Positions 5,148 to 64,000 are shown, counted from the first letter of the stretch. The stretch: 64,000 nt of DNA from Escherichia coli (GCF_044324785.1 NZ_CP172127.1); one strand, 5' to 3'. Numbers and translations are program-made. Notes: generated by a model from the letters alone, not told the origin.

Positions 5148-6041
5148 TTAATCCTGACGAAGGACTTTGTGACCATAATCGAGTAACGCATCAGTGACTT
5201 TACGCATCATGCGGCTTTCAGGAGCAAAGCGGTGCCAGTAGAGCATCCGTCGTTGAAATAGCCCAGGCGTTAAGTCAATCAGTTCACCGCTGGCCAGCTC
5301 TTTCTCGATTTGCAGGTGCGGGATCATACAGCAGGTGGTGCCCTGGCGAGCAAGTTGCACGAACGCTTCTGAAGAATTAACGATATGGCACGGTACGCTG
5401 CCTGGGGGCAGATCGAAGTTTTGCTGCAAAAAGGCCTGGTGCATATCGTCAAGATGGTCAAAGGCGACCACTGGCGCTTTTAGCAGAGCCGAACGCGTTA
5501 CGCCGTTAGGGAAATATTTTTCGGCAAACGGTTTTGAGCTGACGAACAGATAGTCGAGCGCACCGAGCTTATCGACAAGACAACTCGGCAGCGCCTGATG
5601 TTGAATACTCACCGCGCCGACCACTTCGCCGCGGCGCAGACGTTCCTGAGTGCGGGTTTCATCTTCTACCTGCAAGTTGAGGCGGATAGGCGAATCAGCC
5701 AACACAGGAGCCAGCGCCGGAAGCAACCACGTCGCCAGACTGTCGGCGTTGACCGCCAGTGAAAGCAGCAGCGGAGTCGAACCGGTTTGTTCATCGCCCA
5801 GCCACTCTTCTTCCAGCAACTCCACCTGGCGTAGCAGTGCCAGCAGTTTTTGCCCTTGTTCTGTCGGGCGCGGTGGTACGGTACGCACCAACAGCGGCTG
5901 CCCGAACATATTTTCCAGTTGCTTAATGCGCTGTGAGACGGCTGATTGTGTAATGCACAGCTTTTGTGCCGCGCGCTCAAATCCTCGTTCACGTATCACC
6001 GCATCCAGTGCCTGTAATGTTCTGTAGTCCGGGCGTTTCAT
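5148..6041 (-). CDS. argP: LysR-family transcriptional regulator ArgP/IciA, 297 aa
   Basis: ORF 5148..6107 trimmed to ATG giving [43 protein letters not shown] (HTH). Confidence 0.9.
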
Positions 6042-6423
6042 TGCTGTTGTCTGCTCCTGGTAAATGCTTTTTCCTGCACTATGACACAATTTTGTGTCAG
6101 GTTGCATATACCGAAGCCGTCGGCGGGTAACATTTGTATTCGTGGTTAAACGCGCAGCTTAAAAGATCAGGGATTTGCGCTAATGCATTTCGCTCAGCGA
6201 GTTCGCGCCCTGGTTGTGTTGAATGGCGTGGCGTTATTGCCTCTGTTCGCACCGTGGAGCGGCATACCCAGACCGTTGTATGCTTTATTTGCCGGGCGAA
6301 AGGGGATGCCCGCCATTGCGCGATATTTTATGGATGAGTTAACCATGCGGCTTGCCAACGGGGTCTGAATCGCTTTTTTTGTATATAATGCGTGTGAAAT
6401 TTCATACCACAGGCGAAACGATC

Positions 6424-33443: not shown

Positions 33444-33794
33444 GTTTTTGCGAGGAAGGGGAGTTAGAGACAGGAATTGCGGAGGCAATCACATAATCGT
33501 GGTTAAACCACGAAAATGAGAAGAGAACCTGACAATGGAATTATCTGTAATTTTCTCATATTGATATTTCATTAATCATTCTGGCATGTCGCACTCTCGC
33601 TTTTAATCGTTTTTATCTGGATAGCGCTCTTTTGGTCGGCAATGTTGAAATAATGAAAGCGGCACAGATTGAGGGGCAATAATTTGAACTCAGTCGCAAA
33701 ATTATAATTAAAACGGTCATGCTACCTAATATATGCCCGTTTATTGCATCGCGAAATTTGAGAAGACATAACTCATTAAATGAAAGGGATGCAA

Positions 33795-40499: not shown

Positions 40500-40530
40500 T
40501 CAAACAGAGAAACAGGCCGCCGAAGCGGCC
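40500..40530 (-). terminator. hairpin GGCCGC-cgaa-GCGGCC just downstream of xdhD stop, U-rich tail on minus strand
   Basis: Inverted repeat read directly; possible partial terminator before xanQ. Confidence 0.4.
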
Positions 40531-48500: not shown

Positions 48501-48666
48501 CGACGGGAGTGGCACAGGTTTCACCGAAGACGCTAACAGTTTTACCTTTTACGGGTGAGTAAAACTGTTGCTCGGGAATACCAAAGATTGAGCGTTGTTG
48601 TTGGTATTCATCAAATATGCGCGTCAAAAGTTCCTCAAACGGAATGGGACGCATAATATCCCCCAT
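45568..48666 (-). CDS. ygfK: large Fe-S flavoprotein oxidoreductase (GltD/dihydropyrimidine-dehydrogenase-like with 4Fe-4S clusters), 1032 aa
   Basis: Dinucleotide fingerprints [28 protein letters not shown] and VVVVGAGNTAMDCARAAL; ferredoxin motifs CLECNYVCSKCVDVCP and CNECGNCAQFCP; AGGAG RBS. Confidence 0.85.
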   Translation of the reverse strand: MGDIMRPIPFEELLTRIFDEYQQQRSIFGIPEQQFYSPVKGKTVSVFGETCATPVGPAAGPHTQLAQNIVTSWLTGGRFIELKTVQILDRLELEKPCIDAEDECFNTEWSTEFTLLKAWDEYLKAWFALHLLEAMFQPSDSGKSFIFNMSVGYNLEGIKQPPMQQFIDNMMDASDHPKFAQYRDTLNKLLQDDAFLARHGLQEKRESLQALPARIPTSMVQGVTLSTMHGCPPHEIEAICRYMLEEKGLNTFVKLNPTLLGYARVREILDVCGFGYIGLKEESFDHDLKLTQALEMLERLMALAKEKSLGFGVKLTNTLGTINNKGALPGEEMYMSGRALFPLSINVAAVLSRAFDGKLPISYSGGASQLTIRDIFDTGIRPITMATDLLKPGGYLRLSACMRELEGSDAWGLDHVDVERLNKLAADALTMEYTQKHWKPEERIEVAEDLPLTDCYVAPCVTACAIKQDIPEYIRLLGEHRYADALELIYQRNALPAITGHICDHQCQYNCTRLDYDSALNIRELKKVALEKGWDEYKQRWHKPAGSGSRHPVAVIGAGPAGLAAGYFLARAGHPVTLFEREANAGGVVKNIIPQFRIPAELIQHDIDFVAAHGVKFEYGCSPDLTVEQLKNQGFHYVLIATGTDKNSGVKLAGDNQNVWKSLPFLREYNKGTALKLGKHVVVVGAGNTAMDCARAALRVPGVEKATVVYRRSLQEMPAWREEYEEALHDGVEFRFLNNPERFDADGTLTLRVMSLGEPDEKGRRRPVETNETVTLHVDSLITAIGEQQDTEALNAMGVPLDKNGWPDVDHNGETRLTDVFMIGDVQRGPSSIVAAVGTARRATDAILSRENIRSHQNDKYWNNVNPAEIYQRKGDISITLVNSDDRDAFVAQEAARCLECNYVCSKCVDVCPNRANVSIAVPGFQNRFQTLHLDAYCNECGNCAQFCPWNGKPYKDKITVFSLSQDFDNSSNPGFLVEDCRVRVRLNNQSWVLNIDSEGQFNNVPPELNDMCRIISHVHQHHHYLLGRVEV

Positions 48667-48748
48667 AACCCTCTCCTTAGCTTATACAGATATCATTGAG
48701 TGACCGGTGTTGAGAAATCCGGTGGTTTAGGGGGATAGAGCAACAATC

Positions 48749-48764
48749 GCACCACTCTTGCCAG
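48749..48764 (-). promoter_or_regulatory. candidate sigma54 promoter upstream of ygfK (CTGGCAAG-N4-GTGC)
   Basis: Minus-strand CTGGCAAGAGTGGTGCG read by eye; GG/GC spacing correct; ~85 nt upstream of ygfK ATG. Confidence 0.35.
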
Positions 48765-48817
48765 GTTTGGCGGGAAATATAAAAAAATGTGAGGCGGCTC
48801 GAAACTTAGGAGCTTTT

Positions 48818-48833
48818 TGTGAATGAACTCACA
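48818..48833. promoter_or_regulatory. perfect CRP core site TGTGA-N6-TCACA
   Basis: tttTGTGAatgaacTCACAgg read directly in ygfK upstream region. Confidence 0.5.
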
Positions 48834-48987
48834 GGTGCCAAATGAGAATTAAAATCACTCCTGAAAATTATTATTGCCAGCCCATTTATCACTTTTTCTC
48901 TTTTCTCAAAATCAGTGATTCCTTATCATTATGATAAAGAGAACTGGAAGGGTTAAATATTTGAACGCAATCGTTTAACTACGTTTT

Positions 48988-55839: not shown

Positions 55840-57036
55840 TTAAGGTGCTACAGCGTGTTTGCCTTCCCAGACAACTTCGCGGTAGTGCTTCACGTCTGTG
55901 TCGCCTTCAGTGCTGATAACCAGCACTACGGCATCTTTGTTCAGCGCCAGTTTTTCCATCAGGCTTTGACGTTGCGGGTGATAATGAACCGCTGCGAGAA
56001 CGCCCAAACCGACAGCGCCAGATTCACCGGAGATGATGCGTGGATCGTTGCCGTACGGATTACCCAGTACGCGCATACCTAATGCGGCAACGCTGTCCTG
56101 GCAGGAGATGAATTGGGTGGCGCAGTTACGTAGGATTTCCCAGCCCAGCGGGTTAGGTTCGCCACAGGCCAGGCCTGCCATGATGGTGGCCATATCACCG
56201 CCAACGTTGACGATGTCGCCTTTGACGCCAGAGCGATAAATACAGTCAGCTTTGTCAGGTTCAACAATAATGCTGTGCAGATTTTGCGGGCTGTAGACGT
56301 CGACCAGATAACCCAGCACACCACCAGCCATTGCACCGACACCGGCTTGCAGCAGAACGTGCGTCGGGGTTACGCCCATTTCACGCATTTGCTCGACGGC
56401 TTCATCTGCCAGTGTTGCGTAGCCTTGCATGATCCAGGTTGGGATTTTGGTGTAACCTTCCCAGGCGGTATCTTGCACCACTTCCCAGCCGTGCTGCTGC
56501 GCGTGTTGCATGGTCAGGCGAACGGTATCGTCATAGTTCATATCCGTGACGATGCACTCGGCACCGAGGTTCAGAATGGCGTCAACGCGTTCCTGAGCAG
56601 AACCTTTCGGCATGTAAATCACCGCATTCTGTCCGAGTTGCTGTGCTGCCCACGCCACACCGCGCCCGTGGTTGCCGTCGGTGGTGGTCGCGAAAGTCAT
56701 TTTTTCGCCGATGGCATTTTTCAGGTGCTCAAATGACAGCGTTTCGATATCAAGATGATATTTTTCGCACAATAATTGAGCGATGGCGTATGCACCGCCG
56801 AGCATTTTGAAGGCGTTCAGACCGAATCGTTTTGATTCGTCTTTGACGAGAATTTTCTTCACACCAAAAAGGTTTGCGAGATCGTCCAGCGCACAAAGCG
56901 GTGTTGGGCGATAACCAGCAATTTTCTGGTGGAACTGGCGCGCCAGTTTGGCCTGGCTTTGCGAAAAGAGCGGTGATGTTTCGCCGTTGAAAAATTTGTT
57001 ATCGGCGATATCAATCTTCAATGAGAAAACGGACAT
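55840..57036 (-). CDS. ygeX: PLP-dependent 2,3-diaminopropionate ammonia-lyase, 398 aa
   Basis: Fold-type-II PLP motif around SKRFGLNAFKMLGG; full ORF; synonym dpaL. Confidence 0.85.
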   Translation of the reverse strand: MSVFSLKIDIADNKFFNGETSPLFSQSQAKLARQFHQKIAGYRPTPLCALDDLANLFGVKKILVKDESKRFGLNAFKMLGGAYAIAQLLCEKYHLDIETLSFEHLKNAIGEKMTFATTTDGNHGRGVAWAAQQLGQNAVIYMPKGSAQERVDAILNLGAECIVTDMNYDDTVRLTMQHAQQHGWEVVQDTAWEGYTKIPTWIMQGYATLADEAVEQMREMGVTPTHVLLQAGVGAMAGGVLGYLVDVYSPQNLHSIIVEPDKADCIYRSGVKGDIVNVGGDMATIMAGLACGEPNPLGWEILRNCATQFISCQDSVAALGMRVLGNPYGNDPRIISGESGAVGLGVLAAVHYHPQRQSLMEKLALNKDAVVLVISTEGDTDVKHYREVVWEGKHAVAP

Positions 57037-58284: not shown

Positions 58285-58760
58285 AAAGTCCCGGTAGTGG
58301 AATGACAGGCAAAGAGGTTTATTTCACTGTGACTTGCCAAAAGTGATTGGTCTTTTCACAGCTATACCTGGGACTAACAATAACTATGCCAGAATTATCC
58401 AAGCGGCTGCAAAAGACTAATTTGACGGGTAATGTGTGGGGTTGATCACAAATTGATGCCAGCTTCTGGTTGTTTGTAAAATACGAAAACGTTTGGCTTT
58501 TTTTATCGCGTTATTTATTTGCTGCTAAGTATCAGAAATAAGATAAAGGGGCAGGTTATCCCTCGTCAGTTTGATAAACTCACCGCCGTAATTCTCATAT
58601 TGATATAGAAATGTGATATCTCTTCCATAATTTCATTAGAAAGTGATAAAAATCTTATGTTTTTATCAAAGCCAATTTCGTCTGAGTTAATATCATCATG
58701 ATCTGTGAACCATCAACGTCTTCAATGATCGACTTTTAAGTAAGTCTGGAAGGTAAAGCT

Positions 58761-60539
58761 ATGGAGCTTGCTACTACGCAGTCAGTACTGATGCAAATTC
58801 AACCGACAATTCAGCGTTTTGCCAGAATGCTTGCCAGCGTTTTGCAGCTTGAGGTTGAGATCGTTGATGAAAACTTGTGTCGCGTCGCCGGAACGGGCGC
58901 GTATGGGAAGTTTCTTGGTCGCCAGTTGAGCGGCAACTCACGCCTGCTCCGCCACGTCCTGGAAACGAAAACTGAAAAAGTTGTGACACAATCTCGCTTC
59001 GATCCCCTTTGCGAAGGTTGCGATAGTAAAGAAAATTGCCGTGAAAAAGCATTTCTGGGTACGCCTGTCATTTTACAGGATCGTTGTGTTGGGGTGATAA
59101 GTTTGATTGCCGTTACCCACGAGCAACAAGAACATATCAGTGATAATTTACGCGAATTTTCTGATTACGTTCGCCATATATCCACCATTTTTGTTTCGAA
59201 ACTTCTGGAGGATCAGGGGCCAGGAGATAACATCAGTAAAATATTCGCGACCATGATCGATAATATGGATCAGGGCGTATTAGTTGTTGATGATGAAAGT
59301 CGGGTTCAGTTTGTTAATCAGACTGCCTTAAAAACACTCGGTGTTGTGCAAAATAATATTATTGGGAAACCTATCCGTTTCAGACCATTAACATTTGAGA
59401 GTAATTTTACCCATGGACATATGCAGCATATTGTTTCGTGGGACGATAAAAGTGAATTAATCATTGGTCAATTGCATAACATTCAGGGCCGACAATTATT
59501 TTTAATGGCGTTTCACCAATCGCATACCAGTTTTTCTGTAGCAAATGCACCTGATGAACCGCATATTGAACAATTGGTTGGCGAGTGCCGTGTTATGCGG
59601 CAATTAAAACGACTCATTAGCCGTATTGCACCCAGCCCATCCAGCGTTATGGTGGTTGGTGAAAGCGGCACGGGTAAAGAAGTCGTCGCCCGTGCAATCC
59701 ATAAGTTGAGCGGAAGACGGAATAAACCTTTTATTGCTATCAACTGTGCCGCGATTCCGGAGCAGCTTCTGGAGAGCGAACTGTTCGGTTATGTTAAAGG
59801 CGCATTTACTGGCGCTTCTGCCAACGGTAAAACAGGGTTGATTCAGGCGGCGAATACGGGCACGCTGTTTCTCGATGAAATAGGTGATATGCCATTAATG
59901 TTGCAGGCTAAATTACTGCGCGCTATTGAGGCGCGTGAAATTCTGCCGATTGGTGCCAGTAGCCCAATACAAGTCGACATCCGCATCATTTCTGCAACTA
60001 ATCAGAATTTGGCCCAGTTCATTGCCGAAGGTAAATTCCGCGAAGATCTCTTCTACCGACTTAATGTTATCCCGATAACTCTTCCACCGCTGCGTGAACG
60101 TCAGGAAGATATTGAACTACTAGTGCATTACTTTTTACATCTGCATACCCGTCGTCTGGGATCGGTTTATCCTGGCATTGCTCCTGATGTCGTCGAAATA
60201 TTGCGTAAGCATCGTTGGCCCGGAAACCTGCGCGAGTTAAGCAATTTGATGGAATATCTGGTTAACGTTGTTCCTTCAGGTGAAGTTATCGATAGCACGC
60301 TATTGCCGCCAAATCTGCTGAATAATGGCACAACGGAACAAAGTGATGTAACAGAGGTCAGCGAGGCGCACCTCGCACTCGATGATGCGGGCGGCACGGC
60401 GCTGGAGGAGATGGAAAAGCAAATGATCCGCGAGGCGCTTTCACGTCATAACAGCAAGAAGCAAGTTGCTGATGAACTGGGCATCGGCATTGCTACGCTC
60501 TATCGCAAGATTAAAAAATATGAGTTGTTAAACACATAA
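58761..60539 (+). CDS. ygeV: sigma54-dependent transcriptional activator (bEBP) with N-terminal sensor domain, 592 aa
   Basis: Walker A GESGTGKE, sigma54-contact GAFTGA, C-terminal HTH IGIATLYRKIKKY. Confidence 0.9.
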   Translation: MELATTQSVLMQIQPTIQRFARMLASVLQLEVEIVDENLCRVAGTGAYGKFLGRQLSGNSRLLRHVLETKTEKVVTQSRFDPLCEGCDSKENCREKAFLGTPVILQDRCVGVISLIAVTHEQQEHISDNLREFSDYVRHISTIFVSKLLEDQGPGDNISKIFATMIDNMDQGVLVVDDESRVQFVNQTALKTLGVVQNNIIGKPIRFRPLTFESNFTHGHMQHIVSWDDKSELIIGQLHNIQGRQLFLMAFHQSHTSFSVANAPDEPHIEQLVGECRVMRQLKRLISRIAPSPSSVMVVGESGTGKEVVARAIHKLSGRRNKPFIAINCAAIPEQLLESELFGYVKGAFTGASANGKTGLIQAANTGTLFLDEIGDMPLMLQAKLLRAIEAREILPIGASSPIQVDIRIISATNQNLAQFIAEGKFREDLFYRLNVIPITLPPLRERQEDIELLVHYFLHLHTRRLGSVYPGIAPDVVEILRKHRWPGNLRELSNLMEYLVNVVPSGEVIDSTLLPPNLLNNGTTEQSDVTEVSEAHLALDDAGGTALEEMEKQMIREALSRHNSKKQVADELGIGIATLYRKIKKYELLNT

Positions 60540-61943: not shown

Positions 61944-64000
61944 TCAAATCAATCCTGCCAGATGGAACTCTTCATATAACCGTTTTGGCGTCAGCGGCAG
62001 TGTATTGATTGCAACACCGGTAGCCATCTTCACCGCGTTACGAATAGCAGCGGCAACAGGAATTATGGGTGGCTCACCCAGTGACTTATGTCCGTATGCG
62101 GATTGCGGCTCATTGATTTCGACGAACGCGCTTTCCAGTTGTGGCAGATCCGGCATGGTCGGCATTTTGTAATCCAGCAGATTGGGGTTACGGACCACGC
62201 CGCTTTTCGCATCAATGATCATCTCTTCAAATAGCGCCCAGCCAATGCCCATTCCCATTCCGCCGTGTACCTGACCTTCTGCCAGTAGCGGATTAAGAAT
62301 ATGGCCCGAATCATGAACGTTGAGGATGCGGTTGATGGTGACTTTGCACAGCGCAATATCGATCGTCAGATCAACAAAGGTACAGCCAAATGCCGGTGGG
62401 TTAGTGGTGGTTTTGATGGAGCTTTCAGCAGAGAGCTGCCCGCCGCGTTCAGGGTGGTAGAAAGCGTCCATCGCCAAATCTTTTAACGACATTAACGGCT
62501 CTTCCGGTCGTTCAATCAGCACGATATGGCCTTTTATCAGGGTCAGATTCATCGCTGACTGATGTAGCATGACTGCGGCGTGAGCGATGATTTTCTCTTT
62601 TAATAACAGTGCCGCACTGCGCAGCGCAGGCGCGGCAACATAGCTCTGGCGTGAGGCAAATGCGCCGGGATCGAACGGCGTAACGTCGGTATCTTGTGTT
62701 GAAATAACGCGAACGTCGCTGACCGGAACCCCCACGGTTTCTGCCACCATTTGCGAGAAGACAGTGTCGGCACCCTGACCGATTTCTGTCGCGCCGCTTT
62801 GCACGTTGATGGTTCCATCCTGATTCATCAACAGGCGCGCGCCTGCTATTTCTACGCCGACAGGCCAGGTGTTAGAGGTGTAGCTAAAACAGGCGACGCC
62901 AACGCCGCGGCGTAAATTGCCTTGCTGGTTCTGGCACTCTGCACGGCGTTTTTCCCATTCAAAGATTTTCCGGCCTTTTTCAAGACACTCCGGCAACCCT
63001 GCGCTGTAAATACGTTTGCCTGTGAGCGGATTAGCATCTCCTTCGCGGGCGGCGTTGCGTAAACGAATTTCAACAGGATCAATACCTAACGCTGTCGCGG
63101 CGTCATCAAGCATAGACTCAACGGCAAATACGACTTGTGGCGCGCCATAACCACGCATCGCACCAGCCGAGGGGAGGTTGGTATAGCAGGTCTTTGAACT
63201 GTAAGCGTAGGCACAACGAGGATAAAGGTAAGCGACTTTATTCCCCCCCGCAGAAGCGATGGAGTGCCCGTGAGATGCATAAGCGCCGGTGTTAGACAGA
63301 ACATCCAGACTATAACCTTTCAATGTTCCGTCGCGGTTCACGCCCATTTGCCCGTCAATAGTGAAAGCGTGGCGGGTTCGGGTTGCGAGGAAACATTCTT
63401 CACGACTAAGGGAAACTTTCACCGGAATGCCGCCAAGCTTGCTGGTCAGGAATGCCGCCATTGGCTCTTCCAGAACATCCTGTTTATTACCAAAACCGCC
63501 ACCGACAAACGGTTTGATAACTCGTACGCATGACCAGGGAATATCCAGCGCCTGACCAACGACGCGGCGAACAATGTGCGGGATCTGGGTGCTGGAAACG
63601 ATGGTAATTCGAGAGTCATCCTCCATCCATGCCAGCGATGTCACGCTTTCCATGTGACAATGTTGAATGACCGGCGTCTGATAGTGCCCCTGTACCTGGT
63701 AGTCGGCGGCATCGATTGTTTGTTGGACATTACCCGTCGACATCGTGCTTTGTTTTAGTAAATTGCCGCCGTTATGGATTGGTGCAGCGTCATCTGCCAG
63801 CGCCGCTTCTGGCGTGGTGATAACGGGTAATTCTTGCCACTCAATGCTGACCAATTGCGCCGCTTTTTCTGCCGTGAGTTCATCACGGGCCACGACGATG
63901 GCAACGGCGTCACCATGATGACGAACATGGCGAGTTAGCAGTGCGCGATCGGCGGTATCGCGCTTGTTTTCGTCAAGTGTCCAGGCATGCCCAGCTGTAG
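61944..64000 (-). CDS. xdhA: xanthine dehydrogenase molybdopterin-binding subunit; 3-prime ~685 codons only, the start lies beyond the window end
   Basis: Frame stays open upstream of the ORF-track start through to position 64000; Mo-hydroxylase family sequence. Confidence 0.85.
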   Translation of the reverse strand, partial: TAGHAWTLDENKRDTADRALLTRHVRHHGDAVAIVVARDELTAEKAAQLVSIEWQELPVITTPEAALADDAAPIHNGGNLLKQSTMSTGNVQQTIDAADYQVQGHYQTPVIQHCHMESVTSLAWMEDDSRITIVSSTQIPHIVRRVVGQALDIPWSCVRVIKPFVGGGFGNKQDVLEEPMAAFLTSKLGGIPVKVSLSREECFLATRTRHAFTIDGQMGVNRDGTLKGYSLDVLSNTGAYASHGHSIASAGGNKVAYLYPRCAYAYSSKTCYTNLPSAGAMRGYGAPQVVFAVESMLDDAATALGIDPVEIRLRNAAREGDANPLTGKRIYSAGLPECLEKGRKIFEWEKRRAECQNQQGNLRRGVGVACFSYTSNTWPVGVEIAGARLLMNQDGTINVQSGATEIGQGADTVFSQMVAETVGVPVSDVRVISTQDTDVTPFDPGAFASRQSYVAAPALRSAALLLKEKIIAHAAVMLHQSAMNLTLIKGHIVLIERPEEPLMSLKDLAMDAFYHPERGGQLSAESSIKTTTNPPAFGCTFVDLTIDIALCKVTINRILNVHDSGHILNPLLAEGQVHGGMGMGIGWALFEEMIIDAKSGVVRNPNLLDYKMPTMPDLPQLESAFVEINEPQSAYGHKSLGEPPIIPVAAAIRNAVKMATGVAINTLPLTPKRLYEEFHLAGLI

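Follow-up and report, generated by a model that had tools for sequence, protein, structure and literature searches.

Register and predicted control region of the known sigma-54 promoter upstream of ygfK in the uric-acid catabolism cluster of Escherichia coli

The prpBCDE promoter of E. coli and Salmonella is driven by sigma-54 with the bEBP PrpR and is subject to CRP-dependent catabolite repression (Lee et al. 2005, J Bacteriol). The promoter upstream of ygfK in E. coli resembles it in several ways: each serves a catabolic, glucose-repressed sigma-54 operon with a bEBP encoded in the cluster and a CRP site, putative in the case of ygfK, in the control region. They differ in that IHF is used at prpB, whereas no IHF consensus was found at ygfK and the role of CRP there is presumed. 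A more distant parallel is the DioR sigma-54 regulon of Clostridiales (Nie et al. 2019, PMC6615313), in which orthologues of ygeW-ygfK-ssnA-ygeY, dpaL and yqeB/yqeC/ygfJ are predicted to be under the control of sigma-54 and a dedicated bEBP, although these bacteria belong to another phylum and the UAS motif is described as 'distinct' (PMC6615313).

The closest described system is the ygfK promoter itself, which is already known from a ChIP-seq catalogue and an EcoCyc flag dating from 2015 or earlier. Table 1 of Bonocora et al. 2015 (PMC4591121) lists a sigma-54 ChIP-seq peak upstream of ygfK, OS31, with an FAT (fold above threshold) of 26, a peak centre at 3014019, a motif centred at 3014001 and a distance to ygfK of 62, and flags it 'P', predicted in EcoCyc. 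From an earlier rpoN microarray list, only five genes were confirmed by ChIP, and ygfK was among them (PMC4591121). Sigma-54 occupancy upstream of ygfK in vivo is thus shown by published ChIP-seq (PMC4591121), though the same authors point out that sigma-54 binding is no proof that transcription is productive. In the RpoN genomic-SELEX study (PMC8743547), the ygeV/ygeW region is listed, but ygfK is nowhere mentioned. Sister promoters upstream of ygeW (OS30), xdhA (OS29) and ygfT (OS32) lie in the same cluster as ygfK and share its candidate activator.

We analysed a window of 64,000 nucleotides of E. coli DNA (NZ_CP172127.1) that holds this purine and uric-acid catabolism region. In the RefSeq annotation of an identical strain, the gene order is xdhABC, ygeV (divergent), ygeW-dpaL-ygeY-hyuA-arcC and yqeB-yqeC (opposite strand), continuing with mocA, ygfK-ssnA-ygfM-xdhD, xanQ-guaD-ghxQ, ygfS-ygfT (opposite) and uacT. 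The genes ygfK-ssnA-ygfM-xdhD encode reductive steps in the anaerobic degradation of uric acid, a pathway now engineered in probiotic E. coli against hyperuricaemia, and uric acid induces ygfK. Of 5,426 complete E. coli genomes, 5,171 match the 801 bases around the promoter, and the annotation there places these bases between mocA and ygfK. The region is identical in K-12, with the motif centre at 3015979 and the ygfK ATG at 3016060 (NC_000913.3). The coordinates of the features discussed below are collected in Table 1.

Table 1. Features of the ygfK control region, its transcription unit and its candidate activator gene, in window coordinates
Feature	Position	Strand	Sequence	Basis and remarks
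Register A, motif of the original prediction	48748..48764	minus	CTGGCAAGAGTGGTGCG	9.08 bits, rank 35; overlaps register B by 8 nt
Register B, functional sigma-54 -24/-12 element	48739..48755	minus	GTGGTGCGATTGTTGCT	12.35 bits, rank 3; published OS31 motif
Predicted transcription start	48728	minus		Motif centre + 19 nt (Bonocora convention); NC_000913.3 3015998
5'-leader stem-loop, +6..+26	48703..48723	minus	ACCGG-N11-CCGGT	RNAalifold and folding z
Second, degenerate CRP-type or TTCG-N10-CGAA element, centre -67.5	48788..48803	minus	TTCGAGCCGCCTCACA	Comparative
Perfect CRP core (TGTGA-N6-TCACA), centre -97.5	48818..48833	minus	TGTGAGTTCATTCACA	Zero-mismatch match
Conserved block, about -116	48840..48857	minus	TGATTTTAATTCTCATTT	Near-invariant in alignment A1
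Degenerate extra half-site, about -179	48903..48911	minus	TTTTGAGAA (TTTTGATAA in other genera)	Comparative
Perfect palindrome, candidate UAS, centre about -202	48923..48937	minus	TTATCATAATGATAA	Comparative counts
ygfK CDS, 1,032 codons	45568..48666	minus		ORF list and RefSeq annotation; heads transcription unit
Terminator-like hairpin and T-rich tail, directly 3' of xdhD stop	40515..40530	minus	GGCCGCTTCGGCGGCC	Terminator scan
ygeV, bEBP gene of the cluster	58761..60539	plus		Pfam and GAFTGA in translation

The original prediction had assigned the sigma-54 promoter of ygfK to the 17-mer CTGGCAAGAGTGGTGCG, and its description of that sequence is accurate. The 17-mer is present at 48764..48748 on the minus strand with canonical GG/GC spacing, its -24 element agrees with the consensus at six of seven positions (TGGCAAG against TGGCACG), and its 3' end lies 81 nt before the ATG at 48666. 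A second register, B, starts 9 bp downstream of this one, A, and both keep the spacing of TGGCACG-N4-TTGCW. Split by element, register B reads GTGGTGCG-ATTG-TTGCT, with GG at 48753/48752 and GC at 48741/48740, and register A reads CTGGCAAG-AGTG-GTGCG, with GG at 48762/48761. Register B is the OS31 motif letter for letter: locus, strand, motif (identical in the window and in K-12) and 62-nt leader are all the same, and we take the two to be the same feature, the sole discrepancy being the upstream offset of the predicted 17-mer. Hence, the claim that a sigma-54 promoter precedes ygfK holds (OS31, FAT 26), but its register does not, as the true elements lie 9 bp further downstream. The published peak is centred 18 bp downstream of the centre of register B, although ChIP-seq resolution alone is too coarse to tell apart registers separated by 9 bp. 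The start predicted from register B gives a leader of 62 nt, reproducing the distance of Bonocora et al.; no experimentally mapped ygfK transcription start was found in the literature searched.

To score the two registers, we built a PWM on Table 1 of Bonocora et al. 2015, taking its intergenic sigma-54 ChIP-seq motifs except that of ygfK, 49 in all, and computed ranks over 127,968 window positions. By this measure, the 17-mer of the original prediction is weak, and its score is not comparable to those of bound sites: it falls below about 45 of 50 validated sites (leave-one-out), that is, below about 90%. Register B is inside the range of the 49 ChIP sites, in the lower third. A random sequence of 64 kb is expected to hold about 16 matches as good as register A and about 3 as good as register B, and the window has 8 copies of the core TGGCA-N7-TGC, where shuffles give 4.66 +/- 2.5 and 15 of 100 shuffles reach 8. 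From the sequence alone, therefore, register A is at chance level and register B is only suggestive. The -24 element of register B (TGGTGC) is non-consensus in Enterobacteriaceae. Here ygfK and ygeW differ, since ygeW combines a consensus -24 (TGGCA) with a -12 of TTGTT, whereas ygfK combines a non-consensus -24 (TGGTG) with a perfect -12 (TTGCT). The known ygeW promoter, at 58376..58392 on the minus strand, is the best PWM match in the window (rank 1, 16.2 bits); it reads CTGGCATAGTTATTGTT in this strain and CTGGCACACTTATTGTT in K-12, with two changes at non-critical positions.

Conservation separates the registers far more clearly. Scanning one genome per species yielded 80 gammaproteobacterial ygfK loci, from genera that include Escherichia, Citrobacter, Klebsiella, Serratia, Edwardsiella, Morganella, Aeromonas, Photobacterium, Vibrio and Shewanella. 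In 77 of the 80, the register-B motif is the best PWM match in the 400 nt before ygfK, scoring 11-19 bits and lying 53-160 nt before the ATG. In Enterobacterales and Aeromonas, it takes the form YTGG[C/T]NYGATTGTTGCT; in Vibrionaceae, the form is TTGGCNNNGTAGTTGCT. All 17 positions of register B are invariant in five Escherichia/Citrobacter sequences, K-12 included. Where register A would fall, by contrast, the 80 loci have a median of -16.4 bits, and just one of them, in the closest Citrobacter isolate, reaches at least 8 bits. Register A is not conserved beyond Escherichia and its closest relatives and is polymorphic within Escherichia itself, with TGGTA in E. whittamii and AAT in place of AAG in E. 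coli E69. Lineages differ in which gene precedes ygfK (mocA, arcC, yqeC, hyuA, ghxQ, uacT, xdhB or ygeV), and therefore the register-B motif travels with ygfK and not with synteny.

Further upstream, we looked for conserved blocks by phylogenetic footprinting of 20 Enterobacterales upstream regions (alignment A1) and inspected distant genera by sigma-54-anchored comparison. One such block is a palindrome, TATCA-N3-TGATA, found with at most one mismatch within 320 nt upstream of the sigma-54 site at 73 of 76 ygfK loci, mostly at -180..-215, where the background expectation is 0.055 per region; in Lonsdalea, it is replaced by the symmetric variant TCTCA-AAA-TGAGA. The same palindrome precedes the sigma-54 promoters of ygeW (28/29), ygfM (5/5) and uacT (6/7), and a palindrome of this type lies about 150-235 bp upstream of the sister promoters of ygeW, xdhA and ygfT. 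For ygfK, ygeW and ygfT, the distance is about 200-235 bp, and the palindrome is conserved across Gammaproteobacteria. Of the six matches in the window (1.32 expected), four are in the cluster's intergenic regions that hold sigma-54 sites: one at ygfK, two between ygeV and ygeW (58593..58605 and 58691..58703) and one between ygfT and uacT (33554..33566), the last at -199 from the predicted ygfT start. The conserved UAS of a bEBP-activated enhancer is expected at about 80-250 bp upstream, and the palindrome has this placement. A degenerate half-site follows about 22 bp promoter-proximal to it; it forms a conserved block in A1 and occurs, with at most one mismatch, at -160..-180 in 40 of 77 loci (0.03 expected). 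Nearer the promoter, 47 of the 77 loci carry TTCTCATTT with at most one mismatch; most copies fall at -115..-120, and the expectation is 0.02.

As the original prediction noted, a bEBP, YgeV, is encoded in the same cluster. The protein is intact, with a PAS/GAF-like N-terminus, a GAFTGA loop and a Fis-type HTH, and its Pfam matches are Sigma54_activat (E = 2e-70), AAA_lid_14, HTH_8 (3e-13) and PAS. Published links to the regulon consist of iModulon co-expression that includes ygfK and an effect of ygeV on ygfT. The palindrome is shared by the cluster's sigma-54 promoters, as a regulon-specific operator would be, and we therefore assign it to YgeV; it is presumably the YgeV operator, and we hypothesize that YgeV controls ygfK. 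We considered a Fur-box reading and rejected it: the E. coli version resembles the GATAAT hexamer, but the cross-lineage consensus, TATCAAAGTGATA, does not, and its place, at -200 and next to each of the cluster's sigma-54 promoters, is one that suits a UAS. A further perfect palindrome, TATCAAGATGATA, lies at 56748..56760 inside the dpaL (ygeX) CDS, about 970 bp upstream of ygeY, and could be either a chance occurrence or an internal operator.

At sigma-54 promoters studied so far, CRP has usually been a repressor, as at glnAp2, which speaks against an activating role at ygfK. The interval between palindrome and promoter at ygfK is occupied by CRP-type sites in place of IHF: no match to the IHF consensus WATCAANNNNTTR was found from -1 to -262 on either strand with at most one mismatch allowed. 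An IHF site in this interval is a frequent feature of bEBP-activated promoters, though not an obligatory one. The site centred at -97.5 is conserved in 38 loci, mainly Enterobacterales, and the element nearer the promoter (TTCGA-N6-TCACA/G) recurs at about -67 in 35 loci with at most two mismatches; a TCACGAAA-type sequence is conserved as far as Vibrio and Photobacterium. Like ygfK, ygeW has a CRP-type site between palindrome and promoter, but its position differs, at -78 rather than -97.5; a site at about -78 is found in 26 of 29 ygeW promoters and falls at 58435..58450 in the window. These positions suggest that CRP may be an architectural element between the palindrome and the sigma-54 promoters. 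CRP genomic-SELEX targets include ygfK, ygeV<>ygeW and ygfT<>ygfU (Shimada et al. 2011, PMC3105977), and a 2025 preprint reports that uricolysis is repressed by glucose and places a CRP site in the ygeV-ygeW spacer. TGTGA-N6-TCACA also reads as TGT-N10-ACA, a UAS of the NifA/FhlA type, and the site at -97.5 could thus belong to a bEBP and not to CRP.

Downstream of the predicted start, a hairpin spans about the first 40 nt of the predicted leader. Across 19 Enterobacteriaceae, RNAalifold predicts five base pairs, and two of these show compensatory series (G:C/G:U/A:U and C:G/U:G/U:A). Unrelated stems stand at the equivalent place in the leaders of Hafnia, Buttiauxella, Edwardsiella, Aeromonas and Photobacterium, and over 37 diverse loci, the leader folds with a mean z of -1.17, whereas an upstream control gives +0.16 (p about 1e-5). 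The hairpin is thus kept as a structure, not as a sequence, across lineages, and it may stabilize the mRNA. A search for Rfam families in the leader and intergenic region gave no family match; a match to mir-184 (E = 0.45) was rejected as spurious.

The original prediction had described a seven-gene operon, which is doubtful. Within it, the intergenic gaps are 2 bp for ygfK-ssnA, 50 bp for ssnA-ygfM, -4 bp for ygfM-xdhD and 164 bp for xdhD-xanQ. The hairpin that follows the xdhD stop has a stem of 6 bp, all G:C, and is probably the 3' end of the ygfK-ssnA-ygfM-xdhD unit. In keeping with this, the YgeV iModulon gene list has ygfK, ssnA, ygfM and xdhD but not xanQ, guaD or ghxQ. Because of this hairpin and the iModulon membership, a unit of four genes, ygfK-ssnA-ygfM-xdhD, is more likely than one of seven. 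In many genera, contiguity is limited to ygfK-ssnA, and ygfM-xdhD have a sigma-54 promoter of their own. A search of the 321-bp mocA-ygfK interval for terminator-like structures found none, and a sigma-70 promoter scan near ygfK returned just two 9-of-12 matches, at chance level and misplaced.

How firmly do these data fix the promoter? If register A were the working element, it would supply a -24 of TGGCA and a -12 of TGC, and transcription would start about 9 nt further upstream, at about 48737. Its spacing is correct and its -24 is the better-looking of the two, yet it scores 9.08 bits to the 12.35 of register B, at rank 35 and at a level expected about 16 times per 64 kb. It lies inside the resolution of the ChIP-seq peak, but the peak centre is 27 bp from its own centre and 18 bp from that of register B, and MEME in the ChIP-seq study (PMC4591121) picked register B. 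Moreover, the element is absent from the equivalent position at 79 of 80 loci, and in E. whittamii, the C of its -24 is a T. We give scarcely any credence to this reading; score, conservation and the published motif led us to reject register A as the true promoter, and it is probably a chance look-alike. Hardly more probable is that, in Escherichia, the sigma-54 holoenzyme binds both registers, which would then be alternatives or competitors, with the extra TGGCA as a lineage-specific modulator of occupancy. Both are intact in K-12 and in this strain, and the motif has a fairly high FAT, 26, considering that its -24 departs from the consensus, but register A is unconserved even among Escherichia species, its score is sub-threshold and no data call for a second site.

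Granting register B, the site might be occupied and yet unproductive, and ygfK might be expressed by read-through from mocA or with the help of a sigma-70 promoter. Transcriptional silence is found at many sigma-54 sites (PMC4591121), but ygfK responded in the rpoN microarray study, and the sigma-54 site and UAS are kept before ygfK whatever the upstream gene. Read-through would meet no terminator-like structure between mocA and ygfK, although the YgeV iModulon list has ygfK and not mocA; the CRP sites could serve a sigma-70 promoter, although the only two candidates are the chance-level, misplaced ones noted above. On balance, we think this explanation improbable, if less so than either use of register A. 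The most credible of the alternatives, though still unlikely in our judgement, is that a bEBP other than YgeV activates the promoter, or that the TGT-N10-ACA sequences at -97.5 and -67.5 are the activator sites and the palindrome at -200 belongs to another regulator. TGT-N10-ACA is a common form of bEBP UAS, but the perfect TGTGA-N6-TCACA is largely confined to Enterobacterales, and CRP binds the ygfK region in vitro (genomic SELEX, PMC3105977). By the same token, the E. coli palindrome is loosely like a Fur-box hexamer, whereas its commonest form, TATCAAAGTGATA, is not, and across lineages, the palindrome stands at UAS-like distances from every type of sigma-54 promoter in the cluster. Finally, ygfT, on which ygeV has an effect, carries this palindrome as well, at -199.

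We favour, then, a promoter at register B that is activated by YgeV from the palindrome. In this model, the sigma-54 (RpoN) holoenzyme binds GTGGTGCGATTGTTGCT (48755..48739, minus) and would start transcription near 48728, giving the 62-nt leader. A bEBP, most likely YgeV, would bind the palindrome about 200 bp upstream and the adjacent half-site, and CRP-cAMP at -97.5, possibly also at -67.5, would take the place of IHF in bending the intervening DNA; comparative genomics is the source of both of these steps. The looped activator hexamer would then open the closed complex using ATP, so that ygfK-ssnA-ygfM-xdhD would be expressed in response both to the YgeV signal (uric acid or related purines) and to a lack of glucose, and the small hairpin at the 5' end of the leader would probably stabilize the mRNA. 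Taken jointly for ygfK, we hold this account, from the register-B element and start to YgeV at the palindrome, CRP-bent DNA and leader hairpin, with good confidence. More tentatively, and as a proposition that falls a little short of an even call, the same arrangement of a palindromic YgeV operator, one or two phased CRP-type sites that bend the DNA and confer positive cAMP-CRP dependence, and a leader hairpin may be a conserved enhancer layout of the uricolytic sigma-54 promoters of Gammaproteobacteria. We found no description of this layout (palindrome as candidate YgeV operator, CRP-type sites, leader hairpin) in the literature searched, and all three parts are predictions, not findings.

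The promoter itself is nothing new; the practical value of the analysis comes from putting its register right and from mapping the control region by comparison. If true, the layout would give the YgeV regulon a defined operator and would explain the glucose repression of uric-acid degradation in the gut by promoter architecture. The exact register, the likely YgeV operator and the CRP sites are also a guide to the bases to mutate or replace.

Several other sequences came to light in the course of these scans. In other genera, strong sigma-54 motifs of their own are present at ygfM-xdhD (loci L064-L068 and L079), uacT (L012-L027) and dpaL (L048, L049, L058 and L076); the regulon is wired differently in each lineage, with the promoter type unchanged. 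A yqeC-internal sequence, TTTGCACGAACCTTGCA, scores 15-16 bits about 380-400 nt upstream of yqeB and was rejected, as it has no GG and lies in a conserved CDS. It is conserved in many genera (L010, L028, L033, L034 and others), which most likely reflects conservation of the coding sequence and not a promoter. Directly after the mocA stop, at 48965..48980 on the minus strand, is a PurR-box-like sequence, AGTTAAACGATTGCGT; its reverse complement, ACGCAATCGTTTAACT, agrees with ACGCAAACGTTTGCGT in 12 of the 16 positions, and nothing relevant on a PurR link to ygfK, ygfJ or mocA was found in the literature searched. The sequence AAACGATTGCGT is found at -243..-247 in 11 of 77 loci (0.003 expected), its carriers being Escherichia, Citrobacter, K. 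indica, Edwardsiella and Buttiauxella. Strain N3 matches the window at 100% identity in the promoter region, and its xdhA is annotated as frameshifted (a pseudogene) at L081 1961..4257, which corresponds to about 61944..64000 of the window and beyond. Finally, the second-best PWM match of the window, CTGGCGAGCAAGTTGCA (13.9 bits; 5343..5359, plus strand), is antisense within a 319-codon minus-strand ORF at 5148..6107 and might be an intragenic sigma-54 site of the kind described by Bonocora et al.
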